64,000 nt of DNA from UHGV virus genome UHGV-0125821. One strand, given 5' to 3'. Both the position numbers and the translations under genes were made by a program. The notes beneath the pieces were generated by a model that ran no database searches, had not been told where the DNA came from, and was given only the letters and a program-made list of their open reading frames with translations. This document shows, in pieces, positions 2,104 through 49,604 of the stretch; within the stretch, counting starts at the first letter, position 1, and each line of letters begins with the position of its first letter. This DNA comes from a virus.

Positions 2104-4021
2104 CAATCCTTTACGAATTAATATTCAGTCTACTTTTGCTGATACGATCCCCGGCTATGTGCCAAGTCGCTGGTCTTCAGAAGAATTAAGCGAAGATGAC
2201 CTGATTTTTGAGGCGGCGACCTTAGAAGATATTGAGCTTGCCTATATGGGCAATGAAATTCTGGTTGTGTCTGACGAAGCTATGTTTGAGTCCATAACTA
2301 CAACCAGAATTCGGTTAGCTCAAACAATGCGAGCTTTCGTCCGTGCGCTGAATCGTGGCCTGAATGGTACGAATATTATGGCAGGGACTGATGAAGCCGG
2401 GACCGATGAAAATGGACGTAATTGTATTGGTGGTGCGATTATCGGTCGTGTACGTCGGGTAGCTAATATCCCTGTTTTGACCGCGCAGATACCGCTTACT
2501 GACGGGCAGAGTACAAGCATAATTTTCCACTCTCCAACAGCTGACGGGGCAAAAATAAAGAGTAACGACGAGCTTGTTGCATTTCAGTTTTTACTTAATA
2601 AGCGTAACGTAACTCACGTTGTCGCCCCGATTGGTGGGAGAGATGTTTCTTTAAGCCAGGTATGCCAGGCGCTATCTAATTTGATTGAGCGTAACAGCGA
2701 AAAATTTAAGAAAGCAAAAGAGCGCCAGGACAAAATGAAGGCAGATATTGAGAGTTATCTCAATGAAGCAGATAAACTGGCAGAAGAACGGTCAATAATG
2801 ATTGATCAGGTGGACGTTGCGCAACGTGGGCTGACTGAAAAGCGTGCTGCTCTTACGGAGATGCAAAAAAAACTTGATGCCCAGAAAGCCATCAACGAGG
2901 AATTACAAGAAAAACGCGATAAATTGTTGTCTGCTAAAGGTGAAAAAACGAAGGAACGAGCGTTTAGTGACCAGCTGCGACATGTAAAACATAATCTTGC
3001 CATTGACGGAAAAACAGTGCTGGATAATGGCGCTGAAGTTAATTATATCACGTCCGGCAGTGACAATTTCGTTACGATAGTAGCACCTGAAGGTAAATTC
3101 AGTATTGATGCCAGTGCTGTCAAAGGAGGCAGTTTGGCAGATGCTGCAACCAAATTACTTAAAGCCTACCGAGAGCATAACGCAGATAAATATAAAGTTG
3201 ATGTGTTACCAGGCCAGCAGGAAGACCCCGAACCACCACAGACAGACCCCGAGACGAACCCAGTATCACAACCAGAGAGCCAGGATGTAGGTAAATACCA
3301 CTATGCACTTCAATCTCGCCCGGCTGGTGTTGGTGCTGTGCCGGATGGAAATAAAGCCGTGCTTGATCGTCCTGACCAGGCTGATCAGTATTACGAATAT
3401 GCTCGTCACGGTATCATTACGTATGACCGTAAACTGACAGATGAAGAAGTCAGCCAGTACGAGTTGCTCTATCTTCCTGATGAAGATGAGCTGAAAGATT
3501 TTGCAGGCCAATTGGTTGTGTCCAGCATGTCGAAACATATTGATGGCTATGTAGACCTGTTTGGCAGTGACCTGAAAACATTCAAGGCGCAAGTGAAAAT
3601 TCTTTTCCGCAAAGCGTTTCCAAACGTGGCGTATCCACTTGGTGATGGGGAGAACCTTTTCATTATGGACGTGTATAACGCCCTTCAAAATCATTCAAGC
3701 GAAGTAAAAACAGAGCATGTGGTTGAGCCGGAATCACAACCACAACCAGCACCAGAACAGGAGCCGGAGCCAGAAGAAGCTGGTGAATCAGCAAGTGAAG
3801 CTGATCAGGAGGCAGATAAAGCACTGGAGTACCTGAAATCCGTGCCGGAGCAGTTTACATCCCGCGATCTGACGGTCATCAGTGCTGAACTTGATCATGT
3901 GCAGGAAGCAGCAAACGCTCTAATCAGCGCAGGTCGATACGACGAGAACGAAGCCACTGTTGGTGCAGCAGTTGACTACCTGATCAACATTCTGGCTGAA
4001 ATTCAGCAGGGAGGTGCTTAA
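2096..4021 (+). CDS. Large internal head/antirestriction-type protein (DarA-position; about 641 aa)
   Basis: Size and operon position match P1 DarA; ATG at 2096 follows a GGAGG; acidic Pro/Glu-rich linkers. I do not recognise the sequence itself, so the name is positional. Confidence 0.45.
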   Translation: MINNPLRINIQSTFADTIPGYVPSRWSSEELSEDDLIFEAATLEDIELAYMGNEILVVSDEAMFESITTTRIRLAQTMRAFVRALNRGLNGTNIMAGTDEAGTDENGRNCIGGAIIGRVRRVANIPVLTAQIPLTDGQSTSIIFHSPTADGAKIKSNDELVAFQFLLNKRNVTHVVAPIGGRDVSLSQVCQALSNLIERNSEKFKKAKERQDKMKADIESYLNEADKLAEERSIMIDQVDVAQRGLTEKRAALTEMQKKLDAQKAINEELQEKRDKLLSAKGEKTKERAFSDQLRHVKHNLAIDGKTVLDNGAEVNYITSGSDNFVTIVAPEGKFSIDASAVKGGSLADAATKLLKAYREHNADKYKVDVLPGQQEDPEPPQTDPETNPVSQPESQDVGKYHYALQSRPAGVGAVPDGNKAVLDRPDQADQYYEYARHGIITYDRKLTDEEVSQYELLYLPDEDELKDFAGQLVVSSMSKHIDGYVDLFGSDLKTFKAQVKILFRKAFPNVAYPLGDGENLFIMDVYNALQNHSSEVKTEHVVEPESQPQPAPEQEPEPEEAGESASEADQEADKALEYLKSVPEQFTSRDLTVISAELDHVQEAANALISAGRYDENEATVGAAVDYLINILAEIQQGGA

Positions 4022-8828: not shown

Positions 8829-9791
8829 GTGAGTATTTTAAATTCAGTTTCAGTAACTTTCAACACTTCTGAGTATAAAAACAACACTGAATACCACAAA
8901 AAAATCAAAGGTCATCAGTTGAGTTTTTTTGCTCGTCATAGCGGTCTTATTTCCCCTTCACATAGCGCCATTATTGCCGAGTTCGCCAACCTGGCAGGGG
9001 CTACCGATGAATACATGATCCGTCGCTCATATGCTGATATGTCCGAGATTACAGGACGCAGTATTTCTACTGTGCGCCGGGCATTTGCTGAAGCGACGAA
9101 GTGCGGAATGCTTGTTAAGCAACATCAGGTAGCGAATAACAATGCCCAGGTGTGTAACGTATATCGGTTTACGACACAATTTCTCCACTTCATTCATGTA
9201 GCAATGGAGATAGGGGGTAAGCAGGGCATCAAATTTGCCAACGCCACAAAACTGGTTAAGCAGTTGATTTCAAAGGTTCGTTATTTTTTTGAAACTGGGA
9301 CCCCCCTGTTCAAATTGAACAAGTCCCCCTATGTTCAAAATGAACAGCCAATAGAAAATAAGAGTCACTCTATAGCCAAAAGAAGAGAAAGATCATGCGC
9401 GGTTCAGCCAAAGGCTTCACCAGCAGATAGTTCTCAAACGGATAACGGGGTACTGGATAAAAAACCAGTAATCAGGGAAGAACATACCAACCACTGCCTG
9501 GCGGCGGCAAAAGCGAGAGCTGCAAAGCGTCGTTCAGACGAGGGGCACGCAAAACGGCAGGCTCTGTATCGTACCGCTGAAAAGCTGGCAAAAAAATTTG
9601 CATGGATACGTAGTGCCGCTACCGCAGTGAATAAGCCTAAACAATCCAGTGCCCTGGATTTCTCAATGGATTATTCTGGCTCCCAGGGGTGTGCAACCAT
9701 TGGTGAAGCCTTTGACCTGATGAAACAGCGTGGCTATCGGTCTGAATTTGACCGTGAGGATTGGTCAATCCCGGCGGGCTTTAGGGGATGA
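8829..9791 (+). CDS. Hypothetical DNA-binding protein (winged-helix-like segment)
   Basis: 320-aa ORF with GTG start; segment ITGRSISTVRRAFAEATKCGMLV resembles an HTH. A replication-initiator (RepL-like) role is only a guess. Confidence 0.45.
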   Translation: MSILNSVSVTFNTSEYKNNTEYHKKIKGHQLSFFARHSGLISPSHSAIIAEFANLAGATDEYMIRRSYADMSEITGRSISTVRRAFAEATKCGMLVKQHQVANNNAQVCNVYRFTTQFLHFIHVAMEIGGKQGIKFANATKLVKQLISKVRYFFETGTPLFKLNKSPYVQNEQPIENKSHSIAKRRERSCAVQPKASPADSSQTDNGVLDKKPVIREEHTNHCLAAAKARAAKRRSDEGHAKRQALYRTAEKLAKKFAWIRSAATAVNKPKQSSALDFSMDYSGSQGCATIGEAFDLMKQRGYRSEFDREDWSIPAGFRG

Positions 9792-9842
9792 CCTGTGTGT
9801 CTACAAAACATCCCAATGATCGGAAAATGCTCGCTCGATAAT

Positions 9843-9873
9843 TTGTGTTAGAAAATTAATTTGCTGTTTCTAA
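9843..9873. promoter_or_regulatory. Bivalent operator-like site (GTTAGA-N16-TCTAA inverted pair) upstream of the c4/icd/ant-like module
   Basis: TGTGTTAGAAAATTAATTTGCTGTTTCTAAA; same core spacing as three other bivalent copies; positioned like P1 Op51. Confidence 0.45.
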
Positions 9874-10078
9874 ATCGGAATGTATGATCTGCATCATCGA
9901 CTGAAGTCATCCATTGCTGAAATTTTTAGTTGATCTTCCATGTTTTCAGGCTTATATTCATGTCGTCGTAGCAAATTCTGCGACCGGGTTTAGCAGCCTG
10001 AATACGAATGCGGACAACCGCAGATATCCGATATTGCGGTATTTTTGTGTCCGTAAAACCACGTTACGCCCGAATTAT

Positions 10079-10155
10079 GGTGGGGCGTGATGGGGAGGCT
10101 TCGGCCTGCTGGTTTCATTCGTGCCAGTCTGCTAACCCCGTCACGTCCTGCCACC
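10079..10155 (+). ncRNA. c4-like antisense immunity RNA (candidate)
   Basis: Long closing stem GGTGGGGCGTGA...TCACGTCCTGCCACC around an AGGC-TTCG-GCCT hairpin; internal CTGCTAAC is complementary to GTTTAGCAGC repeats at about 9988 and 10157, the second just upstream of the icd-like RBS. Boundaries approximate. Confidence 0.35.
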
Positions 10156-10205
10156 CGTTTAGCAGCGGGGCGCAGGTTGTTAAACCTACGAATGAGGCCG
10201 TAACT

Positions 10206-10430
10206 ATGGTTAATGCCAATCCTTGCTCGCGCCCGGAATTTATCTGGCGTTTCCACTCCCTGCAAAAACACTGCGATCACTTCGCAATTGCCGCAACTGA
10301 AAAAGAAGCCCGTTCTCTGATCCCTGATCAACATGGCGTCCTGACTGGCCGTTTCTCTACTTCATCACAACCAAACACTAATCCTTGGTATCGCAATATT
10401 GCCAATCCCGGAATTGCGGAGGCACACTGA
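10206..10430 (+). CDS. Icd-like small protein (Ash/Icd family signature FIWRF...AATE.EAR)
   Basis: 74 aa from the ATG at 10206; motif PEFIWRFHSLQKHCDHFAIAATEKEARSLIP; paralog at 48952-49122. The 140-aa track ORF from 10008 is rejected. Confidence 0.5.
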   Translation: MVNANPCSRPEFIWRFHSLQKHCDHFAIAATEKEARSLIPDQHGVLTGRFSTSSQPNTNPWYRNIANPGIAEAH

Positions 10431-11137
10431 TGGATATCTGCATTCTTGAAAAGCCATCAATGACCAGCATTGAGATCGCGGAGCTGGTGGGAAAACGTCA
10501 TGACAATGTGAAGCGTACCATTGAAACATTAGCCGAATCCGGCGTTATTGTTCGTCCTCAAATTGAGGATGAACCAAAAATAGATGTAATGGGGCGTTCT
10601 CGATTAATTCAGGTGTTCCGATTTAGCGACGAGCAAGGCAAACGAGACAGTATTATTGTAGTCGCACAGCTTTGTCCTGAGTTTACTGCCCGGCTGGTGG
10701 ACCGCTGGCGCGAACTGGAAGAACAAGTACGCCAGCCGTTGACCGAAATAGAGATGATCGCCGCAATGGCTGCAAATGCAGTTCAGCAGCAAAAGCGGCT
10801 TCATGCTGTTGAGTCAAAGGTTAGCCAGGTCGCTGAAACCGTCGAGCAAATCAAGAAGGGCAACATTCCGGAAGGTTACATTGGCTACCGCCAGCTGGCG
10901 GCAAAATGCGGCCTGACCGAAGCCAAATGTCGCAACCTGGTTAACGCTTACCGGATTCCCACCGATACACATGAGTTTTTAACTCCAGAGGGGGTATTGT
11001 CGCGTCGTTCCATCGTGGCCTTATCTCCCTTCATGAATGCTTTTAACCGGATGATGTCGGAGGCTGAACACCGAGGAAAACGCTGGTATCACCCCAAAAT
11101 GGGGCAATTCCAGGTGATCGGTTGGGGAGGTGAGTGA
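10430..11137 (+). CDS. Antirepressor, Rha family (Ant-like)
   Basis: N-terminal SIEIAELVGKRHDNVKRTIETL is a Rha-type regulatory domain; ATG overlaps the icd-like stop (TGATG). Confidence 0.6.
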   Translation: MDICILEKPSMTSIEIAELVGKRHDNVKRTIETLAESGVIVRPQIEDEPKIDVMGRSRLIQVFRFSDEQGKRDSIIVVAQLCPEFTARLVDRWRELEEQVRQPLTEIEMIAAMAANAVQQQKRLHAVESKVSQVAETVEQIKKGNIPEGYIGYRQLAAKCGLTEAKCRNLVNAYRIPTDTHEFLTPEGVLSRRSIVALSPFMNAFNRMMSEAEHRGKRWYHPKMGQFQVIGWGGE

Positions 11138-11334
11138 TGGACATCATGCAGGCGGTAAAAAAAATCAGGGAAGGACAGGCTGAAGTGTGCCGCCGTAAAG
11201 CATGGAGTGTTGGTGTATGGGCCTGGCCTGATAATTACTCTACTACCGGATGGTTTTGTATTAATGGACTCCAGATCCGGGAAGTTGATTTATCGACGGC
11301 TGATATAGTCGGTAATGATTGGATCGTGACTTGA
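11137..11334 (+). CDS. Small DUF2829-like protein (Tad2-like fold candidate)
   Basis: 66 aa with AVKKIREGQ.EVCRRKAW and terminal DIVGNDWIV motifs, resembling the larger DUF2829 segment at 34130-34792. Confidence 0.35.
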   Translation: MDIMQAVKKIREGQAEVCRRKAWSVGVWAWPDNYSTTGWFCINGLQIREVDLSTADIVGNDWIVT

Positions 11335-11366
11335 AGCGTGATGCCCCGGCCTGGCCGGGGCTTTTT

Positions 11367-11852
11367 TCATGCCTCATTAGTTGAGGTTGCTGCGTCTCCG
11401 ACTGGTAACAGAGCGGTATTGCGTGGTTCGCCAGCAGGCCAGCGATAGCCAGACACTCTTGATGTTGGGAATGCGCGAATATTAACCGCATCCCCCTGGT
11501 TCCCACCCAGGACAAGCAGATCGCCATTGGCGCGGCGTCCGACAACGAAGCCTACGTGCCCACCGCCTACGCGGGTAAATACAACGATACATCCGTATGC
11601 CGGTGTATCTAATTTCTCGCCCCAATCCAGATAGGATTTTGCCGACTCAAATCTTGTTGAGCGGATGCCTACACGTTCCAGCATTGCACCGACAAATGCT
11701 GCGCACCACGGCGTTTCATCGTCTTTAATTCCGCCGCGCTTGATGTCGCGCCAGAACTGAACGATTTCAGGATTGTGTTTAGCGCCTTTTATTTCAGTCA
11801 GGCCAATGTGCTTACGGGCTTCAATTAGCCAGCGAGGTTCAATGTTTGCCAT
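11367..11852 (-). CDS. NlpC/P60-CHAP-like cell-wall hydrolase family protein
   Basis: 161 aa; candidate Cys in ETPWCAAFV and His in GGGHVGFVVG, typical of phage Cys-His peptidase families. Confidence 0.5.
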   Translation of the reverse strand: MANIEPRWLIEARKHIGLTEIKGAKHNPEIVQFWRDIKRGGIKDDETPWCAAFVGAMLERVGIRSTRFESAKSYLDWGEKLDTPAYGCIVVFTRVGGGHVGFVVGRRANGDLLVLGGNQGDAVNIRAFPTSRVSGYRWPAGEPRNTALLPVGDAATSTNEA

Positions 11853-12003
11853 ATTTTTCTCCCGGTCATGGGTTAATAAGTAGGCAAACTATGGGGAGTA
11901 TGTGATTTTGACGGTAGTATCGTCCCCCTGAAAATAACATTCTCCATACCCTCTCAACCGTACCGCATAGCGGAATTTTTTACGGTTTAGAGGGGGAAAT
12001 CCT

Positions 12004-15000
12004 TTGGACAAACTACTTCATTCAATCAGTGAAGTCTCCAGCTTAGGCGAACTGATTGAAATTGTTAGTCGGTTGCATAAATTACGTGCTGTTGCGACCT
12101 TTGGCGTCAGGAAAGCCGATGGTGTCAGTATTCAGAAAACACGCCGGGCAGCAAACAATGCCGCAGTAAATCTTCTTAATTCCCTTCCGCCCGGCTTCGA
12201 TGGGGCGAAATTAACTGACGAACAACGTCAGATTCTTGCTGGGTATACCGGTGAAGGCGGCCTGACAGATGGTGAGGGCAGCCAATACGAATACTACACG
12301 CCACAGTTTATGGCTGAAGGTATATGGGAGCTGTTTGCTGACTACGGTATTGATGGCGGTCACGTACTGGAACCATCAGCTGGCACGGGTATTTTCCAGG
12401 AGACAAAACGGCAGGGAATGATAATGACCAGCGCCGAGCTGTCTCCGATCTCCGGTCGAATCAACCAGCTGTTGCACCCGGAAGACGATGTGAACATTGG
12501 GGCGTTTGAGGCTCTGGCGGCGAAAGACGCAATGTATGACCACGCTGTTGGTAACGTACCGTTTGGCGAAGGCCGTTCCGGCGTTGCAGGGCTTGATCCG
12601 GCATATGCAAACGAGAAGAACGTTGGCAATTACTTTGTGCTGCGCACGATCGACAAGGTTAAGCCTGGTGGGCTTATCGTATTGGTGGTGCCAAATGGCA
12701 TGACCGATGGTACGAAATATAAAAAATTGCGCGATAAAGTCAGCCGTAAAGCGGAATTTTTGGGCGCACATCGTATGCCTTCCGGTACGTTCAGCGAATC
12801 CGGTACAGATACCGTGGTGGACGTATGGGTATTGCGTAAACACCCGGAAACCTTCCTGGAGATGATCCCCGACACGGATGATTCAACACTCAAATCGGCA
12901 AACGTCCTTTGGGATACCTTCCTCAAAGGAAAATGGTTTACAACCGAAGGGAAGCGATTTGTTTACGGCGACATGGAACGTACCAGCTTCCGCAATACCC
13001 TGGTGGTGAAAAAAGACGGTCGTGTATCCAATGAGTCGATGAAAACCGCGCTATCTCGTCGCTTTGATAGTCGCATCAATTGGGATTTGCTCGGCGTAAC
13101 TACTCAGGCATGGCAGGGCGCGAAAGTGGGCGATAAACGCCTTGTAGGCGGTATCTGGCATGAGTTTGATGGTCTGAAATGGGTTAAGGACACGACAACC
13201 AAATCCTCCGCGCTTGATGTAAGTCGATATGGTGTTTCGACGTTTGGCGATCTGCAGATCGCGTTTCAGTCAACAAATGGCATTCTGGCTTTGTCATGGG
13301 ACCAGATATCGGCGATCGCGTCTGACTATCCATCGGTTGTCAGTGATGAAGTGGCAGCAATGATTCGCTTTGCTGGCAAGCAGCGAGAAAAAGACAGGGA
13401 GCGCGTTATGCGCGGTGCACTGATAGGTCAGTTGATCAACAAGGCACTTGATTTGCGTAACCTGGGGGTGAACGTTGATGACAAACTGGCAGATGCATCC
13501 CGCCTGGCGGCAGCAGAAGTTGCGAAGTATGGACCACCGCACGTGATTAAGCTGAATGGGCTTGCTGAAGCTGGCGCTAAAAACTGGATGACGTTCACTG
13601 GCAATGTGAAACAGGATGGTTCCACTTCTGACCTTCTGGCAGGGCGACTTGATGTAACGGATGGTGCTGCCGGTATTGACTTTACGCGTCCTGAACAAGT
13701 GATAGCACATCTTTTTAGTGATGTAGCCCTTAATCCTATAACGCTGGGCGACTTTCGTGAGGCGTTTGCTGGTGAACTGCCAGAGGACGACGACGCGGCC
13801 CTTGAATACCTGGCGAAATTTGATGATATCGCTATTGATGGGTATGGCTGTCTGCTGCCGATGGACCGCGCCACCAGCGGCGATGTTGCAACCAAAACAG
13901 CACTGCTGGTGGGCTGGCGTGATGCGTCAACAGGTGAGCAGAAAGCGAACTTTGAGCGTCAGCTGGCGAAAATCGAAGAGAAACGCATTTTCACGCCACT
14001 AAATAAAGTCACCGTTAATCTGAATGCCCGCTGGCTGGATCGCCGCTTGATAAAAGAGTTCCTGGCAGAGCAGGGCTATGACGAGTTTAAGTACACTGAA
14101 CCTGATCTGAAGGTCGTCGATGGCATTCTGGTATCTCCGGACGATTACGAAGGTAAGGACGGGGTATTTACCGGCTATCAGCTACGAACCGTAAACGGCA
14201 AAAACGGGAATGAGTTCAAGAAGGCCAACAATAAAGACGGCTTCCTGAACCAGTTAGAAAACTACCTGAACGGTGTTAAACCGCGTGGGCAGAATGCTAA
14301 CGAGTACCTGGATAAAATTGCTCAACTGGAAGTTAGTTTTAACGACTGGTTACGCACTCACCCGCAGGCTGATCAGATAGCCCGCGAGTATAACGACGCA
14401 TTCAATGGTTTCATTCCGTTCACGCATTCTGACGCACCGCTTGGCCTGGAAGGGATTAGTGGAAAGCGCATTCCTCTGACTTATCAGAATGAAGAAGTGC
14501 GGCGCTTGTCAGAAGATGGGCGCGGCATCATGGGATTTGGTACCGGGCTGGGTAAAACCACGACCGCGCTTGCGCTTGAGGCGTATAACTTCGAAACAGG
14601 TCGCACTAAACGCACGTGTATTGTTGTTCCGAAGGCGGTTTATCAGAACTGGTATCACGAGGCACAGAGTTTCTACAGTGCTGATGCCTTCGCCAATATG
14701 ATGTTTATCGGTTTGGATGAAGTTCGTGATGACAGCGGAAATATTCTGACCGCGCCGGTGCTTGATGAAAATGGCGAACCACGCCTCGACAGTAACGGGC
14801 AGCCTCTTACCAGAAATGTTGTGAAAGAGTCCGCCAGCGCCGTTATCGTTCAGCGCATGAACATGATCCCGTCGTCAAATTGGCGAACGGTCATCATGAC
14901 AAAAGAACAATTCGCGTCTATCCCGCTACGAGAAAAAACCATCGATGAGAACTCACAGCAAGCTGTCTTTAATGCTGTGGAAATGGGGCGTCTTGACCTG

Positions 15001-18000
15001 GCGTCCGGTAAACACCGTGATGCGCAGAAGAAGAACAAGATTAAGGATCAGGCCGCGAATACCGGTACAACGAAGAAGCAGAATATCCCGTACTTTGAGG
15101 ATATGAACTTCGATAGCGTGATTGCCGACGAGGGGCATAACTACCGCAACTCCTTTAATGCCGGGCGTGAAGCGGGACAACTGGCATATTTGCCTAACCC
15201 GGCAGTATCCAAGATGGCCCGCGACATGGCTGTAAAAGCTGCGTACATGATGAAACGCAACAACGGGCGTGGTGTAGTCATGCTGACGGCAACACCGCTG
15301 GTGAACAGTCCGATTGATGCCTTCAACATGCTGTCTACTGTCATTCCGCAGGAAGAGTGGATGCGCATGGGCATCATTACGCCTGATGATTTCGTTCGTG
15401 TGTTTGGCAAAACAGCCACAGTTCAGGTCCAGAAAATTTCCGGGGAAGTGGAAGAGAAGCAGGGGCTGGTGGGCTTCCAGAACCTTGACGGCCTGCGTGG
15501 TATTTTCCATCGTTGGACCACTCTGAAGACTGCTGCAGATGTCGGAGCGACGGTTAAAATTCCCGACATCATCGAGAACACCTTGCAGATCCCGATGACA
15601 GGGGAGCAGGAGGCTGCTTATGAAGAGCTTCGTAAGCGTGCTCAGGAGTTAAGTCGCAATGATGAGCTGACAGTCGATGAAAACGGGCATATCACTAACG
15701 ACAAACCGGATGATTTCATCTTCTCCATCATCCGCGACATGGATAAGGTTGCTATAGATCCGGATCTGTATGCCAGTGCGATTACATTCCAGTTCCCCGT
15801 TGAGCTTGCAGACAAGGTAAAAGCTATTGCTGATGCCCTGCCAAAAGTCGCAGGCGGTAAAGTGGCAGAAGATGCAGACGAGGCCGAAGAAGACGGCGTT
15901 GGTGGACTGGTCAGTACGCGTACCAGCAAGGTAGTGAAGACCACCTTTAGTGAACATCCGGCGCATGTTGAAATACGCGCCAGCATTGAACTGGAAGCTG
16001 AAATACTGAAGGCCATTGCTGCCGCCGGGATTGATCTGCAGCAGGTATCACACCCCATCCCACCGAAGTATGCCGCGCTGATCGAAAACCTTCGTGAAGG
16101 TCTGAAGAACGGTAAACAAATTGTCTTCATTGATGAAAAAGCCCAGCACCAGAAGCTGCGCCGTATTATCGCCAGTGCACTGCAAATGCCGGAGCAGGAG
16201 ATAGGCATTATCAATGCGACGACCGTTAGCCAGGCTGGCGGCATCAAGCTGAAGAAGGTGAATAAGCCGACTGAACCTACTCCGAATAAAAACGGTGAAT
16301 ACAAAGAAGGGGCATGGGAAACCTACTACAGCAAACTTGCCCAATATGAGGATTATCTCTCAGCTAAAAATGATGCTGGCCTTGAGGGCATGGAAGGTAT
16401 TGCCGCCGACTATAACGAAGGTCGCACGCGCATCATAATCTGTAACAAGAAGGCTGAAGTAGGTATTAACCTGCACATCGGGACAACCGATATCCACCAC
16501 CTGACACTACCCTGGACACCAGCCAGTATCGACCAACGAAATGGGCGCGGTGCGCGCGTAGGGTCTCCGCAAGAGAAGGTCAATGTTCACTACTATTGTG
16601 GCAAAGGCACATTCGACGACTTCCGTCTGGATACGCTGAAACGTAAGAAAGACTGGATCAAGATGGTGATGACCTCCGACATGTCAGAGATCGCCAATGG
16701 TGATGCGGATGATGCTGATGAACGCGCCATTATGCTGGCGGCAAACCCGGAAGAACGCCGCGCAATCATGGCTCGCCAGGCGCAAGAGCGTGAAGAACGT
16801 CTGAAACTGAAAGCACAGCGCGAGGCCAACAATGCTCTCGATATCTACCTGAAAGCGGCAAACGCCGCCGGAAAAGATATCGGCATGATGGAGACAGAAC
16901 TGAAAAGCGCGATGGAACAGATAGAGTATTACCAGCGAAATCTTGACGACCTGATAAAAGCGGGTACGAACAGGAATGGGCAAAAATACGCACTTGAGCA
17001 GTTGAGTAGCTACAGAAAACGTGCGCGGGTGCTGCGGTTTGCGATCACCAGGGCAAAAGACGCGGATACCATAATGAAACGCTCTCGTGGTGATGTGGAG
17101 CGCGCTATTAAGTCTGGTGTGCTGGATATCAGTATCGATGTTATTCAGAACCCACAGGAATATATGCGCACTGACAAGAATATCCTGTTGCATAAAGGTA
17201 GTTATTACCGTGCAGTCATTGATGATCGCGAAACAACAGCGATTGTCCGGGTGGAAAAAATTGACGGTGAAAAAGCACAATACCTCTGCCGTATCGCCTG
17301 GCTGGATAGAGCAAGTCGTTACGCTCGAGCACCGGGGTCAATCGTTACATTGCCGTTTGACTCTGTGATTGAAGCGGTAACTTTTGAAGAGGGGGTAGCT
17401 GAATCGCGCGCAACGGCTGCGCGAGGTGTTCAGTGCCACCAGCTATCAACAATACTAACTCGCGATCAGTTCTATGATGCTATTCGCAATGGGGTAATGA
17501 ATGTTATTGCTGGTAAACCAGGTAATGCATGGGGCGGTGGGTCAGCTATTAAATACTGGGCATATCGCACAGATGATGGTCAGATTGCGCTGTCATCGGC
17601 CTATGATGGCGTGATAGGCCAAAAAATCGGGCGAGCATCGGATATAGCACCTGAGCGATGGATATATCCTGATGGCAACGACGAGGCGCTGAAGCGTGAA
17701 GTGGCAAAAATACAAGCCAGTGATAACCCGCTGAATATCGTGGACGGCGAGGGATTCCTCCAGGCATTGTATGGGTATGATTACATCCAGGGAATGCAGG
17801 CATGGGGCGCACAGGCAACGATGGATGATGTTGCCCAGGAGTTCGAAAACTGGATGGCTGGGCGTGGTCTGTCAGGTCGTTCGCTTAATAAAGTCACTTC
17901 TGAAGATATTCTTAGCTTGTTCCGCAAACCGTCCGGAGAAGGTCTGGAATCATTCTGGAGGACCGTGCTGGCATACCGTTTATTCCAGGGCAGGATGAAA

Positions 18001-18840
18001 GCCTTTAGCAATATCGATGATATTGAACGGATGTTTAATCAGGTCAAGATCGCGAAAATTAAGGCGAAGATCGAAAAAACACGTTCTGCGCTGGTGGCCT
18101 GGCGCGATGCATTGTTTGAGCAATATAAATCACTCAGTGATGCAGATGGATGGGCGGCATTGGAACAGCTGGCGAATAATGGGGTAGATGGAGCGAAACT
18201 CGCCATTGTTCAGGCTGATAACCCCCTGGAATCACCGGCAGCACAGTGGATTAAGGTGGGGGCTGTCATCAATGCATTTGATGAAAAACACATTAGTAAG
18301 GACGATTTTGCTGATGCTGTTTCTGTTAATCGCCTGGTAGAAATGGCTACCCGCCGCGCCCGTGAGTTGAAAGACGGCGACTATGTGAATGAGTTGCCGG
18401 ATACGCTCAAATCGGCAACGTGGCAGGACTATGTATCGCTGAAAAACGGCGGGGCCACTGAATCAGAGATCGCGGAAAGGCTTGAGCAGGCTGAAAGCAA
18501 AAGAGAAGAGCAGGCGGCAGTGGCTGAAGCCAGAGCTGATGAAGCGGCGAATGATGACTATATCATTGTGGTTAATGATAAGCCGATTCGCGCTAAGGCG
18601 CGTGTTCGCGGGCGCTGGTGGAGCGTCAGCGAGGACGTTGGCGCGGTTTATCTCATTGCCGACCAACCAGGTTCCTCGACAATACGGAACGCCAAAGACG
18701 CGATTAAGAAGATTGGCGGGCGTTTCTGGAATTTTGAAGCAAACCCGGTTGCTGATGTGAACTTTGACCGTCCTGCATGGATGGTATCTACGCGTTACTC
18801 GGTAGATGAACTGCGTAAAATAATCGCCGATGCGGCCTAA
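12004..18840 (+). CDS. darB: Giant methyltransferase-helicase fusion, DarB-like antirestriction protein (2278 aa)
   Basis: N-terminal MTase motifs (LEPSAGTGIF; DHAVGNVPFG); central SF2 helicase (GFGTGLGKTT Walker A; VIADEGHNYRN DExH box); size close to P1 DarB; TTG start after GAGGGGGA. Internal antisense ORFs are spurious. Confidence 0.8.
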   Translation: MDKLLHSISEVSSLGELIEIVSRLHKLRAVATFGVRKADGVSIQKTRRAANNAAVNLLNSLPPGFDGAKLTDEQRQILAGYTGEGGLTDGEGSQYEYYTPQFMAEGIWELFADYGIDGGHVLEPSAGTGIFQETKRQGMIMTSAELSPISGRINQLLHPEDDVNIGAFEALAAKDAMYDHAVGNVPFGEGRSGVAGLDPAYANEKNVGNYFVLRTIDKVKPGGLIVLVVPNGMTDGTKYKKLRDKVSRKAEFLGAHRMPSGTFSESGTDTVVDVWVLRKHPETFLEMIPDTDDSTLKSANVLWDTFLKGKWFTTEGKRFVYGDMERTSFRNTLVVKKDGRVSNESMKTALSRRFDSRINWDLLGVTTQAWQGAKVGDKRLVGGIWHEFDGLKWVKDTTTKSSALDVSRYGVSTFGDLQIAFQSTNGILALSWDQISAIASDYPSVVSDEVAAMIRFAGKQREKDRERVMRGALIGQLINKALDLRNLGVNVDDKLADASRLAAAEVAKYGPPHVIKLNGLAEAGAKNWMTFTGNVKQDGSTSDLLAGRLDVTDGAAGIDFTRPEQVIAHLFSDVALNPITLGDFREAFAGELPEDDDAALEYLAKFDDIAIDGYGCLLPMDRATSGDVATKTALLVGWRDASTGEQKANFERQLAKIEEKRIFTPLNKVTVNLNARWLDRRLIKEFLAEQGYDEFKYTEPDLKVVDGILVSPDDYEGKDGVFTGYQLRTVNGKNGNEFKKANNKDGFLNQLENYLNGVKPRGQNANEYLDKIAQLEVSFNDWLRTHPQADQIAREYNDAFNGFIPFTHSDAPLGLEGISGKRIPLTYQNEEVRRLSEDGRGIMGFGTGLGKTTTALALEAYNFETGRTKRTCIVVPKAVYQNWYHEAQSFYSADAFANMMFIGLDEVRDDSGNILTAPVLDENGEPRLDSNGQPLTRNVVKESASAVIVQRMNMIPSSNWRTVIMTKEQFASIPLREKTIDENSQQAVFNAVEMGRLDLASGKHRDAQKKNKIKDQAANTGTTKKQNIPYFEDMNFDSVIADEGHNYRNSFNAGREAGQLAYLPNPAVSKMARDMAVKAAYMMKRNNGRGVVMLTATPLVNSPIDAFNMLSTVIPQEEWMRMGIITPDDFVRVFGKTATVQVQKISGEVEEKQGLVGFQNLDGLRGIFHRWTTLKTAADVGATVKIPDIIENTLQIPMTGEQEAAYEELRKRAQELSRNDELTVDENGHITNDKPDDFIFSIIRDMDKVAIDPDLYASAITFQFPVELADKVKAIADALPKVAGGKVAEDADEAEEDGVGGLVSTRTSKVVKTTFSEHPAHVEIRASIELEAEILKAIAAAGIDLQQVSHPIPPKYAALIENLREGLKNGKQIVFIDEKAQHQKLRRIIASALQMPEQEIGIINATTVSQAGGIKLKKVNKPTEPTPNKNGEYKEGAWETYYSKLAQYEDYLSAKNDAGLEGMEGIAADYNEGRTRIIICNKKAEVGINLHIGTTDIHHLTLPWTPASIDQRNGRGARVGSPQEKVNVHYYCGKGTFDDFRLDTLKRKKDWIKMVMTSDMSEIANGDADDADERAIMLAANPEERRAIMARQAQEREERLKLKAQREANNALDIYLKAANAAGKDIGMMETELKSAMEQIEYYQRNLDDLIKAGTNRNGQKYALEQLSSYRKRARVLRFAITRAKDADTIMKRSRGDVERAIKSGVLDISIDVIQNPQEYMRTDKNILLHKGSYYRAVIDDRETTAIVRVEKIDGEKAQYLCRIAWLDRASRYARAPGSIVTLPFDSVIEAVTFEEGVAESRATAARGVQCHQLSTILTRDQFYDAIRNGVMNVIAGKPGNAWGGGSAIKYWAYRTDDGQIALSSAYDGVIGQKIGRASDIAPERWIYPDGNDEALKREVAKIQASDNPLNIVDGEGFLQALYGYDYIQGMQAWGAQATMDDVAQEFENWMAGRGLSGRSLNKVTSEDILSLFRKPSGEGLESFWRTVLAYRLFQGRMKAFSNIDDIERMFNQVKIAKIKAKIEKTRSALVAWRDALFEQYKSLSDADGWAALEQLANNGVDGAKLAIVQADNPLESPAAQWIKVGAVINAFDEKHISKDDFADAVSVNRLVEMATRRARELKDGDYVNELPDTLKSATWQDYVSLKNGGATESEIAERLEQAESKREEQAAVAEARADEAANDDYIIVVNDKPIRAKARVRGRWWSVSEDVGAVYLIADQPGSSTIRNAKDAIKKIGGRFWNFEANPVADVNFDRPAWMVSTRYSVDELRKIIADAA

Positions 18841-23272: not shown

Positions 23273-23348
23273 GATGGTGTAGCTCAGCGGTTAGAGCGGT
23301 TGACTGTTAATCAACGGGTCGATGGTTCAAATCCATCCACCATCGCCA
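23273..23348 (+). tRNA. tRNA-Asn (anticodon GTT)
   Basis: Manual fold: 7-bp acceptor GATGGTG/CACCATC, D-arm GCTC..GAGC, anticodon loop CTGTTAA, T-arm GATGG-TTCAAAT-CCATC, 3-prime CCA. Confidence 0.9.
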
Positions 23349-23350
23349 AT

Positions 23351-23426
23351 GCCGGTTTAGCTCAGTTGGTAGAGCGCCTGCCTTGTAAGCAGGATGTCAG
23401 CGGTTCGAGTCCGTTAACCGGCACCA
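23351..23426 (+). tRNA. tRNA-Thr (anticodon TGT)
   Basis: Acceptor GCCGGTT/AACCGGC, anticodon loop CTTGTAA, T-loop TTCGAGT, 3-prime CCA; 2 nt after tRNA-Asn. Confidence 0.9.
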
Positions 23427-25375: not shown

Positions 25376-25451
25376 GGCCCTTTAGCTCAGTGGTTAGAGC
25401 AGGCGACTCATAATCGCACGGTCACCGGTTCAAATCCGGTAGGGGCCACCA
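25376..25451 (+). tRNA. tRNA-Ile (anticodon CAT, lysidine type; tRNA-Met not excluded)
   Basis: GGCCCTTTAGCTCAGTGGTTAGAGCAGGCGACTCATAATCGC... closely resembles E. coli ileX/ileY tRNA; 3-prime CCA encoded. Confidence 0.85.
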
Positions 25452-33151: not shown

Positions 33152-33624
33152 AAACTTATTACCCATCTCTGAATTGTTACCCGTCTTCCTATCCAGGATT
33201 GTCCGGGAAGCTGTTAGCTCTATTAGCTAAAGCACCTACGGAATGGTTTAAGCCAGTCGTTATCAATCCACACTTCCTGGATTACGGATCTGTTCGCACT
33301 CGTAACGAACTCAAAAACTTACTGGCGCATGGATTCATTCGACACCGTGCCGGTAAAGGCTATCAGTTATCGATTGCGCCAGAAGAGGCCGTGCGGCTAT
33401 TCGCATATCGTGACAGCCAGACAAAAGCTCGGGTAATAGCTCAAATACTTCATAACGGCAGCACCTATGCCCGCCAGTTTGGCGGCGACACGTCGCAGTT
33501 CTTGCGGGCGGTGCGATCGCTGGAGGAGCAAGGAGTTATTGAAAGTTCCTGTCTTCCTGTTCCTACCGTTCCACATATCAAACGTCGGGTTTACACCTTC
33601 ACGCAGAGAGCTAAAAAACAATGA
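33148..33624 (+). CDS. Hypothetical protein, possible winged-helix DNA binder
   Basis: 158 aa; 4-nt overlaps with both neighbours. Confidence 0.5.
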   Translation: MKTYYPSLNCYPSSYPGLSGKLLALLAKAPTEWFKPVVINPHFLDYGSVRTRNELKNLLAHGFIRHRAGKGYQLSIAPEEAVRLFAYRDSQTKARVIAQILHNGSTYARQFGGDTSQFLRAVRSLEEQGVIESSCLPVPTVPHIKRRVYTFTQRAKKQ

Positions 33625-34115
33625 TTTACGTAAAAGTGAAACGCCTACATCCGGCAGCAAAACTTCCAGCTTATGCCACCTCCGGATCGGCGGCGATGGA
33701 TTTTGAGGCTGTTGAAATAAAACCATGTGTCGATAGCAATGGTGCAATTTCCTCAAGCTGGTGGGTATACACCGGACTGGCTATGGAGATCCCGCCCGGC
33801 TGGTGTCTGAAACTCTATCCGCGTTCCGGATTGGGCTGCAAAAAACATACTCGCCTGGCTAACTGCGTAGGAATTATCGACTCCGATTATCGCGGTGAAA
33901 TCATGGCAAAACTGATTACAGATCCCGGTGGTGAAGGCGTTTGCCTCAAGCCAGGAATGGCGGTCATGCAAGGCATTTTTGAGCGTGTTGAACCGGTATC
34001 GCTGGTAGAAGTTGATGAACTCGATGAAACAGAGCGAGGCGCTGGTGGCTTTGGTAGCACATCGGAAGACCGCGTTGAAATCAAGCGTACACCGCTTCAG
34101 TACGCAAAGTTTTAA
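33621..34115 (+). CDS. dut: dUTP pyrophosphatase (dUTPase)
   Basis: Conserved dUTPase motifs GIIDSDYRGE and RGAGGFGSTS. Confidence 0.85.
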   Translation: MIYVKVKRLHPAAKLPAYATSGSAAMDFEAVEIKPCVDSNGAISSSWWVYTGLAMEIPPGWCLKLYPRSGLGCKKHTRLANCVGIIDSDYRGEIMAKLITDPGGEGVCLKPGMAVMQGIFERVEPVSLVEVDELDETERGAGGFGSTSEDRVEIKRTPLQYAKF

Positions 34116-34129
34116 GTAGAGGAAGGATT

Positions 34130-34792
34130 ATGGTCAGCACTTTTCAGGTGTTCCCCAAATACAAATGCCACAGCATCATTCGGGCATCGAAAATCAAAGA
34201 TATTGTTATTGTCGGCAAAGCTTATGCGCCCATTTTTGGCAGTATCGAAGTCGTTGAGCCAAAAGGAATGACGCTTCGTGTTGATGGTGTGTTCTTGGAA
34301 AAATTCCGACCGCAAATAGGAGGATATCTCGTCACTGCTGAAAATGGCTATCTGGTCTATGTGCCAGAGAAAGCATTTGAAAAATGCTATAGCCGGGTTA
34401 ACGACGCCTCCGAAAATGGGGTATCGCTCAGCATTGAAGGTCACAATGGGGTGACATTCATTACAGCCAGGGACGTAACTATTTCTGCTGGCGGTATCGC
34501 TACTCTACAAGAAGAAATCGACCTTGAAGCAGCCGACTTTTCTGACGCGCTGATGTGGCTGAAGGATGGCAAGAAAGTTGCCCGGCGCGGGTGGAACGGC
34601 GAAAACCAATTCTGCTGGCTGGTTCCTGAAGGACAGTACCCGGCACGAATGGAAGCCATTAAGGGATATTTCCCCGGCGATCTCGTTCCGTATGGTGCTT
34701 ATTTCGCCTTAAAAAATGCACAAGGTGTAGTTGTTCCGTGGTTGCCTTCTGTAGGCGACTTACTGGCATGTGACTGGTTTGTAGTGGAGTGA
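34130..34792 (+). CDS. Two-domain protein with C-terminal DUF2829 (Tad2-like) domain
   Basis: C-terminal DALMWLKDGKKVARRGWNG...VVPWLPSVGDLLACDWFVV fits the DUF2829 pattern; N-terminal about 130 aa unassigned. Confidence 0.5.
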   Translation: MVSTFQVFPKYKCHSIIRASKIKDIVIVGKAYAPIFGSIEVVEPKGMTLRVDGVFLEKFRPQIGGYLVTAENGYLVYVPEKAFEKCYSRVNDASENGVSLSIEGHNGVTFITARDVTISAGGIATLQEEIDLEAADFSDALMWLKDGKKVARRGWNGENQFCWLVPEGQYPARMEAIKGYFPGDLVPYGAYFALKNAQGVVVPWLPSVGDLLACDWFVVE

Positions 34793-48637: not shown

Positions 48638-48742
48638 AATACTGACTGTTGCGCCCTGGCATTATCGTGGGGTATATTTCTACGGCACCTTAGAAAAACG
48701 GGTGCCGGGATTGGAACCCCGGATAATGCAAAAGGCGACACA

Positions 48743-48766
48743 GACGCCGAAAGCGTCTTTTTTTTT
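48743..48766 (+). terminator. Rho-independent terminator
   Basis: GACGC-CGAAA-GCGTC followed by nine T. Confidence 0.75.
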
Positions 48767-48815
48767 GTGTCATGCCATCGCACAGCCATACGTAGCGTTT
48801 AGCTCAGAGATCAAT

Positions 48816-48891
48816 GGTAGTGCTGGCTGGGCTGCCGAAAGGCAGGCCGGTTCCCTTTTGCGCCGGTAGTTCCAACCCAGTCAGTGCTACC
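48816..48891 (+). ncRNA. Second c4-like antisense RNA (candidate)
   Basis: Stem GGTAGTGCTGG...CCAGTCAGTGCTACC around a CTGCC-GAAA-GGCAG hairpin; internal GGTAGTTCCAA is complementary to TTGGAAC...GGTAGC around the RBS of the icd-like ORF. Boundaries approximate. Confidence 0.3.
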
Positions 48892-48951
48892 GCCATTGAG
48901 ATTGGAACCTCACGCGGTAGCTCCTTAAATTAGCAAAAGGAGGCTGCCAAT

Positions 48952-49122
48952 ATGGCTACTATCCCTACCCCAACTCATTCTGAATTTATCTGGCGTTTCT
49001 ATTCCTGCCAAAAGCACCTGTATATCTGCGTCATGGCTGCTACCGAATCAGAGGCGCGCTCATACCTTCCCGAAGAACCCTGCATTTTTGCTGCTCGCTT
49101 CACTCTAATTGAAAGGTCTTAA
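48952..49122 (+). CDS. Second Icd-like small protein (56 aa)
   Basis: SEFIWRFYSCQKHLYICVMAATESEARSYLP is paralogous to the 10206-10430 product; SD AAGGAGG. Confidence 0.45.
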   Translation: MATIPTPTHSEFIWRFYSCQKHLYICVMAATESEARSYLPEEPCIFAARFTLIERS

Positions 49123-49244
49123 CGATAGTCTGCCACGAATAGTTACTTCCACTGCCTAAAGTTATTTAATTGCATTACAAAGTGTAAATTAGTAACATTA
49201 GAATCTCACACAGCACTATAACTATATGTTTTTTATGTAAAAGG

Positions 49245-49604
49245 ATGATAATCGTGGCTACTAAAATTAAACTTGAAAACCCTCAAACTGGCGAATCAAT
49301 CACCGGTTTTTATGGTTTTTCCTGGACTACATTCTTGTTTGGTGCTTTTCCAGCTTTGTTCAGGAAAGACTTTATAACTTTTATTGGGGTATTTGTAGTG
49401 ATGCTGATACTGGCATTCCTCACAGCCGGAATTGGCCCGTGGATTGCCTCATTTATCTGGGCGTTCATGTATAATAAATATTTCACCGTAAATAAGATAA
49501 AACAAGGCTTCATTTTTGCTGGTTCTCACACAGAAAATGAGTTGGCTGCTAGCAAGCTAGGATTGTCATTAAATCAAAACAACTGCAAAACTATTACCGA
49601 GTAA
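49245..49604 (+). CDS. Small membrane protein (DUF2628-like, tentative)
   Basis: ENPQTGESITGFYGFSWTTFLFGAFPALFRKDF plus two TM helices; AT-rich gene. Confidence 0.45.
   Translation: MIIVATKIKLENPQTGESITGFYGFSWTTFLFGAFPALFRKDFITFIGVFVVMLILAFLTAGIGPWIASFIWAFMYNKYFTVNKIKQGFIFAGSHTENELAASKLGLSLNQNNCKTITE

Follow-up and report, generated by a model that had tools for sequence, protein, structure and literature searches.

A putative divergent Tad2-like protein in the C4-controlled immI operon of a D6-like phage-plasmid

Organization of the immI operon

The window, i.e. the whole stretch of 64,000 nt analysed here, comes from a D6-like (P1-family) phage-plasmid. Its positions 9800–12100 share 94.8% nucleotide identity with Escherichia phage D6, a P1-family plasmid prophage. 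P1, P7 and their kin match only the c4–icd portion of this region, with 86–93% nucleotide identity between positions 9945–10317 and the c4–icd regions of P1 and P7. Between repL (8829–9791) and darB (12004–18840), both placed by mapping the D6 annotation onto the window, lies an immI operon on the plus strand with the order promoter, a1/b1 sites, C4 antisense RNA, a2/b2 sites, icd, Rha-type ant, orf17 and terminator. In P1, the C4 RNA acts at icd and the logic of immI is antirepressor control.

The operon starts with a sigma-70-like promoter (TTGATC-17-TATATT, 9930–9958, plus strand), the positional equivalent of P1 P51b/P1c4, whose two hexamers also precede the C4 gene in a distant locus (L002). 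Next come the a1/b1 target sites of the C4 RNA (9952–10004, plus strand), which exceed the gathering score of Rfam RF03163 with 52.2 bits, with a1, TTAGCAGC, at 9990 and b1, TACGAATG, at 10003 and ending at 10010. The C4 antisense RNA gene follows at 10073–10158 on the same strand and matches Rfam RF01695 over its full length (1–87 of 87) with 71.9 bits (gathering score 45). Exact repeats of a1 and b1 are present as a2 (10159–10166) and b2 (10187–10194) before the ribosome-binding site of icd; the script used for this repeat search also recovered the annotated a2/b2 sites of P1. The icd-like gene (10206–10430, plus strand, 74 aa) was assigned from its reading frame and the D6 annotation, and the Rha/Roi-type ant (10430–11137, plus strand, 235 aa) from Pfam Phage_pRha (36.9 bits), PHROG 63 'anti-repressor Ant' (2e-46) and the annotation of D6 gp109, so that the name antirepressor is given here by homology and position. 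The stop codon of icd overlaps the start codon of ant in a TGATG junction (GGAGGCACACTGATGG), and the junction between ant and orf17 has the same design. An intrinsic terminator with eight G-C pairs followed by TTTTTT (11343–11368, plus strand) ends the operon, its hairpin beginning 9 nt past the orf17 stop codon. The locus is of the P1 immI type in that a same-strand C4 gene with duplicated a/b target sites lies upstream, icd is followed by translationally coupled antirepressor gene(s), and a terminator closes the unit. A sub-gathering Rfam rnk_pseudo match at 11273–11367 corresponds to the terminator hairpin and was discarded.

Directly beyond the terminator, a convergent gene (11367–11852, minus strand) encodes a 161-aa peptidoglycan hydrolase of the CHAP/TIGR02594 family, labelled 'baseplate hub subunit and tail lysozyme' in PHROG. 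Elsewhere in the window, Rfam identifies three tRNA genes (23273–23423 and 25376–25448, plus strand), and the corresponding region of D6 contains a cluster of tRNAs for Ser, Thr and Asn.

The orf17 gene

The last gene of the operon, orf17 (11137–11334, plus strand), runs from an ATG at 11137 to a stop codon at 11332–11334 and encodes 65 aa, or 66 aa if the start is taken as the GTG at 11134; its product is predicted to be a divergent minimal Tad2-like (DUF2829-superfamily) protein. A GGAGG Shine-Dalgarno sequence lies 8 nt before the start, and the A of the ATG is at the same time the last base of the ant stop codon TGA (TGATG, one-base overlap; GGAGGTGAGTGATGG). The product is 100% identical to D6 orf17/gp110, which is annotated 'hypothetical protein', and falls into PHROG 7385, a family of unknown function. 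The nucleotide sequence of orf17 occurs in 111 PLSDB plasmids (about 90 kb; hosts E. coli, Salmonella and Shigella), where the Rha-family gene invariably adjoins it, and in 22 IMG/VR contigs; its 90%-identity cluster holds 165 member sequences. Among relatives with 36–45% identity, eleven residues are invariant (I10, G13, C18, R19, R20, W23, W28, P31, D56, D61 and W62), and truncated or frameshifted copies are also found (P0002, P0003 and P0008). The small ORF that the initial annotation had pointed out beside the antirepressor is, judged by these features, a real translated gene and very unlikely to be a chance ORF. A second orf17 copy was not found by tblastn of the window, and PADLOC gave no match for orf17. 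A Pfam DUF1233 (excisionase) match with an E-value of 0.087, covering residues 2–27 only, was dismissed as noise.

Close alleles of orf17 vary mainly at residues 29, 34, 45 and 57, with a pN/pS of 0.4–1 obtained from three diverged plasmid alleles with very few changes, and selection over this short range is uninformative. A dN/dS value against D6 is impossible because orf17 is nucleotide-identical between the two, whereas ant differs at 87 of 708 nt. As to where the two sequences differ, 72 of the 87 differences in ant sit in the region of the N-terminal winged helix (Rha), and another 17 fall in 10100–10200, a stretch that takes in the a2/b2 sites and, before them, the C4 gene in its 3′ half; the C-terminal half of ant together with orf17 is nearly identical to D6, with eight differences in 10700–11334. 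This clustering in the N-terminal part of ant and in C4 looks like a specificity (heteroimmunity) cassette. Because the differences cluster in the N-terminal winged helix of Ant, the ant/orf17 junction is uninformative as a module boundary.

The operon layout fixes the expression of orf17: it can be made solely from the immI transcript, coupled to ant and controlled by C4, and transcription ends right after it. Given its terminal position and the TGATG chains, translation of orf17 is chained to that of ant and, via ant, to that of icd. Co-expression with the immunity module, which had been supposed at the outset, is thus borne out by the shared promoter, C4 sites and terminator.

Remote homology to Tad2

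The Tad2 fold consists of an N-terminal helix, an antiparallel β-sheet and a short C-terminal helix. The Pfam profile of DUF2829 (PF11195) aligns with orf17 from end to end (residues 1–64 against profile positions 1–72 of 73) at 15.2 bits and an E-value of 0.032, below the 25-bit cutoff. Four of five members of the orf17 family match the profile, the best being P0007 with 23.9 bits (E-value 6.2e-5) and the others scoring 16.5, 14.0 and 11.9 bits, so that neither orf17 nor any of the scored relatives reaches the Pfam gathering score.

A signal far above chance was obtained by comparing profile with profile. Out of 120 canonical PF11195 proteins collected, 116 were aligned, and the solved Tad2 sequences were recovered by the consensus query. 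When the 11-sequence alignment of the orf17 family was compared with these 116 sequences, hhalign returned a probability of 88.5% and a P-value of 2.7e-6 over 64 aligned columns. The observed score of 33.9 compares with 10.5 ± 2.0 (maximum 19.7) for 200 column permutations, none of which reached 20, with 11.7 for the reversed alignment and with 8.3 for the unrelated 69-aa Coi protein of P1. Profile-profile homology accordingly extends over the whole domain. Neither the orf17 sequence nor, subsequently, the family HMM found Tad2 among PDB chains, even at an E-value of 10, which means that the relationship is visible only from profile to profile.

AlphaFold2, run on the shallow family alignment, gave a low-confidence model (pLDDT 67.9) made up of one helix, three strands and a short helix at the C-terminus. 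The structural comparison called for by the initial annotation had a divided outcome: Foldseek of this model against the PDB yielded no significant match, whereas the top match in BFVD was a DUF2829 protein of 66 aa encoded by Pectobacterium phage CBB (probability 0.94, TM-score 0.54, E-value 0.11).

Several features of the alignment resemble Tad2 and DUF2829 proteins in collinear order over the full length, namely an N-terminal helix ending in a glycine (G13), an RRxxW motif, an aromatic β-strand, a PD turn and, at the C-terminus, a helix that bears D...DW(I/L/V)(V/I). The N-terminal helix and terminal DW, on which the initial annotation had based its proposal, are therefore present and align with their DUF2829 counterparts. 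The size of orf17 is close to that of the short canonical DUF2829 members (~72 aa) and, like SPO1 Tad2, HgmTad2/AcrIIA7, SptTad2 and ModTad2, orf17 is phage-encoded. It departs from Tad2 in having two insertions before RRxxW, in the family-specific invariant Cys18, and in the β2–β5 insertion, of which about eight residues are left, with helix α2 almost absent.

Taken together, remote homology of orf17 to DUF2829/Tad2 is likely. The assignment to DUF2829 made in the initial annotation holds in the sense of a remote homologue, as supported by hhalign and the top BFVD match, and fails in the sense of Pfam membership, at 15.2 bits against 25; a significant match to the DUF2829 profile, the lack of which had been named in advance as counting against the proposal, is absent at the Pfam threshold, and in formal terms the proposal falls on this point.

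The ligand-binding pocket

Tad2 is a homotetramer with its ligand sites at the protomer interfaces, and its N-terminal helix mediates tetramerisation. SPO1 Tad2 holds 1″–3′ gcADPR through W25, N26, W73 and D79, with further contacts from I63, T65, D67, H71, S76 and T78 (bioRxiv 10.1101/2023.05.01.538930). The equivalent residues of HgmTad2 are W21/N22 and S90/T92/D93, and the gcADPR site was reported to be conserved in ~99% of Tad2 proteins; the β2–β5 insertion forms the α2 dimer interface and also, where Tad2 proteins are long, the site for cyclic dinucleotides (PMC10680739).

In our canonical alignment of 116 sequences, R22, W25, N26, G27, T65, W73, S76, D79, D84 and W85 are invariant. The orf17 family retains the equivalents of R22, W25 (W23 in orf17), D79 (D56), D84 and W85. 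At the position of N26 it has a one-residue deletion, the tryptophan being followed by S, P or H; T65 is replaced by I or V, and W73 by V or I, the two most divergent members having F or Y instead. The equivalent of S76 is A, S or T, and that of T78 is E, A or N. Half of the known contact residues are thus lost, and a conserved gcADPR pocket was not found. With the equivalents of N26, T65 and W73 gone, the canonical gcADPR site is not present in orf17, and the idea of an intact Tad2-type pocket that sequesters Thoeris signals is not supported for this protein. Since W23 and D56 are kept, a remodelled ligand pocket may nevertheless survive.

A canonical Tad2-like protein in the same window

The phage also encodes a canonical DUF2829 protein of 220 aa (34130–34792, plus strand), in which residues 136–219 match PF11195 with 79.9 bits and an E-value of 2.1e-22. 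This protein keeps the GWNG and PW..S..D motifs, i.e. the canonical W-N and W-x-x-S-x-x-D positions of gcADPR binding, and is predicted to be a better anti-Thoeris candidate than orf17 in this phage. Its gene directly follows that of a dUTPase (33621–34115). D6 orf114 and SJ46 J46_0048 are relatives of the protein, whose N-terminal extension is of unknown function.

Relatives of orf17 and their association with C4

The domain is met in three arrangements: as a free protein encoded after Ant, as the fused C-terminal part of Ant proteins of the Rha or ORF6N type, and as the sole gene after C4. This fusion to antirepressors in paralogous immI modules, the exclusive C4 control of the family and the canonical Tad2-like protein elsewhere in the phage all go beyond the initial annotation. 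Of 44 IMG/VR loci, 41 have sufficient upstream DNA to be assessed, and every one of these carries a C4 gene on the same strand, at a fixed spacing of ~977 nt in the free form and ~270 nt in the fused form. Canonical DUF2829 genes sampled from metagenomes, in contrast, adjoin lysis or capsid genes and not Ant or C4. Hence, the orf17 family is exclusively C4-controlled, unlike canonical DUF2829 genes.

The fused form is exemplified by the second immI module of D6, in which the presence of C4 was confirmed and which encodes gp045, an Ant protein of 313 aa. Residues 1–237 of gp045 correspond to the Ant of the window (63% identity) and residues 256–313 to orf17 (45% identity). Since this fusion is collinear with Ant plus orf17, free orf17 can be regarded as a detached C-terminal domain of an antirepressor, split off in the linker. 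The gp045-type form was found in about 100 plasmids. A different head is seen in p702_18_3, which has three C4 modules, the third with an ORF6N head in place of the Rha head; the Ant middle region and the Tad2-like domain of this ORF6N-headed protein are 99% identical to those of the Rha-headed form. On the D6-like plasmid of locus L016 (NZ_CP074704.1; 23249–24716 and 43880–45298), the ORF6N-headed module is one of three C4/immI modules and occupies a variable spot between capsid and PAAR genes. The same spot holds a minimal module of c4 plus an orf17 homologue in the distant L002 and L004 elements, CP196041.1 being an example of the L002-type phage-plasmids.

The minimal form is seen with P0007, from a Raoultella phage-plasmid, and P0006, where the unit consists of promoter, a1/b1, C4, the homologue as its sole ORF and a hairpin, without icd or Ant, and where a C4-complementary b2 site lies over the ribosome-binding site. 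In L067 (IMGVR_UViG_2778261184_000002; 2623–3198), icd is followed only by an ORF of 83 aa comprising the linker and the domain. Reduced copies of linker plus Tad2-like domain were also observed in four further loci (L006–L009); including L067, these copies measure 81–83 aa, and others, on resistance plasmids, are fragments that neighbour a tyrosine integrase and IS elements. Such copies either result from decay or point to a domain that functions without the Ant body.

The window itself has a second immI module (48685–49604, plus strand), with an isrK/a1b1-like element (48685–48763), a C4 RNA (48810–48897, 76.7 bits), an icd-like ORF (48952–49122) and then an ORF for a 119-aa membrane protein (49245–49604; PHROG 4915, function unknown). 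As this membrane protein takes the place of the Ant::Tad2-like fusion of D6, the cargo under C4 control is exchangeable.

Discussion

Judged by its sequence and its neighbours, orf17 is probably a divergent offshoot of the DUF2829 superfamily and a dedicated component of the C4-controlled immI modules in D6/P1-type phage-plasmids. To our knowledge, the Tad2-like proteins described so far are all free sponges for nucleotides of immune signalling, and a search of the accessible literature for any link between Tad2 and antirepressors, or for a description of D6 orf17, found nothing.

We tentatively propose that orf17 is a detachable Tad2-fold subunit of the antirepressor switch, and consider it more likely to be a part of such a switch than a classical anti-Thoeris sponge. 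The proposal is favoured because the domain forms a covalent part of Ant proteins whose DNA-binding heads are of two different kinds, because its association with C4 modules is exclusive, because the canonical pocket is half lost and because the phage already encodes a canonical DUF2829 protein. orf17 would be produced only on escape from C4 repression, i.e. in fresh infection or on induction, and in a roughly fixed proportion to Ant. Its helix-plus-sheet fold of the Tad2 type might oligomerise Ant, as the tetramerising helix does in Tad2, or might instead supply a contact, effector or ligand site through which the antirepressor switch acts; in both cases, it would work without the canonical action of a gcADPR sponge. 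Several observations pull the other way. The only activity demonstrated in the superfamily is sequestration of small molecules, and W23 and D56, both kept in orf17, correspond to positions that contact the ligand in Tad2. Free orf17, L067 and the Ant-less L002/L004 modules fit an autonomous function, and expression in an early pulse that is then silenced in the lysogen would suit an anti-defence protein as well. The model, with its pLDDT of 68, is of low confidence, and the fold searches of the PDB returned no significant match to Tad2.

The main rival, in line with the initial annotation, is a stand-alone sponge, a Tad2-like oligomer that sequesters a defence nucleotide, although probably not gcADPR in the canonical mode; we regard this as possible but rather doubtful. 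C4 would then confine expression to infection and induction and so spare the lysogen's own defences. Homology to the Tad2-like family is in its favour, as are the retained equivalents of W25, D79 and in part S76, the aromatic F/Y at the W73 position in distant members, and the variety of ligands bound by Tad2 homologues (gcADPR, cyclic dinucleotides and His-ADPR). The persistence of the domain without the Ant body and the strong Shine-Dalgarno sequence before orf17 also agree with it, and the pN/pS of 0.4–1 with recurrent changes at four positions would fit an arms race, the counts being very small. What weighs against a sponge is the loss of canonically invariant N26, T65 and W73, with the deletion in the N26 loop; moreover, a repeated and maintained fusion to antirepressors is unexpected for a diffusible sponge, the canonical protein at 34130–34792 is already there, and the exclusive C4/immI association is not that of canonical DUF2829 genes.

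It is unlikely, on the other hand, that orf17 is an autonomous small antirepressor or other protein-binding effector, whose Tad2-like scaffold binds C1 or another host or phage protein and to which the Rha/ORF6N 'Ant' part would be accessory. Such a role would account for the domain being the sole protein of a complete C4 module in L002/L004, at the position of P1 icd–ant, and for L067 keeping only linker and domain after icd, and it would accord with the antirepressor logic of P1 immI. Yet no similarity of orf17 to Ant1/2, KilA or Coi of P1 was found, immI modules carry other cargo such as the membrane protein of the second module in the window, and L067 together with the P0015-type fragments may have arisen by decay in plasmids rich in IS elements. 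A chance ORF, or a remnant without function, is a reading very hard to credit: the shortness of orf17, the little purifying selection among close variants and the truncated or frameshifted copies would be expected of one, but the gene is intact in the 111 plasmids and 22 viral contigs, keeps eleven residues invariant across paralogues of 36–45% identity, has both a Shine-Dalgarno sequence and a coupling junction, preserves its domain boundary in fused forms and forms its own PHROG family.

Going further than a subunit of the antirepressor switch, the Tad2-fold domain, whether fused or coupled to the winged-helix antirepressor, might be a nucleotide sensor that gates antirepressor activity, which we consider an improbable extension. 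The ligand could be an immune nucleotide derived from a TIR or CD-NTase enzyme, or c-di-GMP. If so, the phage-plasmid would read immune or physiological signalling of the host to choose between lysogeny and lytic escape, and would do so with a one-component regulator built from the fold of an anti-defence sponge.

Below the Pfam threshold and with a remodelled pocket, the subfamily is confined to antirepressor operons under antisense-RNA control, on phage-plasmids that are widespread in E. coli and Salmonella. If orf17 still bound a nucleotide, the lysis-lysogeny switch would be tied to defence signalling or to second messengers, and anti-defence expression would also be seen to be restricted to the lytic phase by the C4 RNA; if no nucleotide is bound, a sponge fold would have been recruited as a regulatory protein module. 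Either way, orf17 offers a testable entry point to the Rha/ORF6N 'antirepressors', which are poorly understood, and to the immI modules, of which D6-like elements carry two or three.

Comparison with known systems

The immI operon of the window resembles that of P1 and P7 in promoter type, in the a1/b1 and a2/b2 repeats, in the C4 RNA, in icd and in the coupled genes behind icd. It differs in its antirepressor, which is of the Rha/Roi type and not Ant1/Ant2, and in the extra terminal orf17, at the place where P1 carries kilA-repL; P1 Ant1 and KilA are without an orf17-like domain. Elements of the D6 type, unlike P1 and P7, have two or three immI modules. Ant and orf17 of the window together resemble the Rha::Tad2-like fusion of gp045 and an ORF6N::Tad2-like fusion (WP_080028508.1), with the same linker boundary, the difference from gp045 being that orf17 is a separate polypeptide with 45% identity to the fused domain; the second immI module of the window lacks an Ant::Tad2-like fusion altogether.

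From the canonical DUF2829 proteins, the orf17 family is set apart by its constant C4 antisense control and frequent fusion to antirepressors. A more distant parallel is Csa3, in which a CARF domain and a winged helix-turn-helix make up a one-component sensor of immune nucleotides. PADLOC reported a weak match of the winged helix-turn-helix of Ant to that of Csa3 (E-value 2.9e-4). The sensor domains are non-homologous, and the fused paralogues of orf17 are like Csa3 in architecture only, each combining a winged-helix head with a domain whose relatives bind signalling nucleotides.
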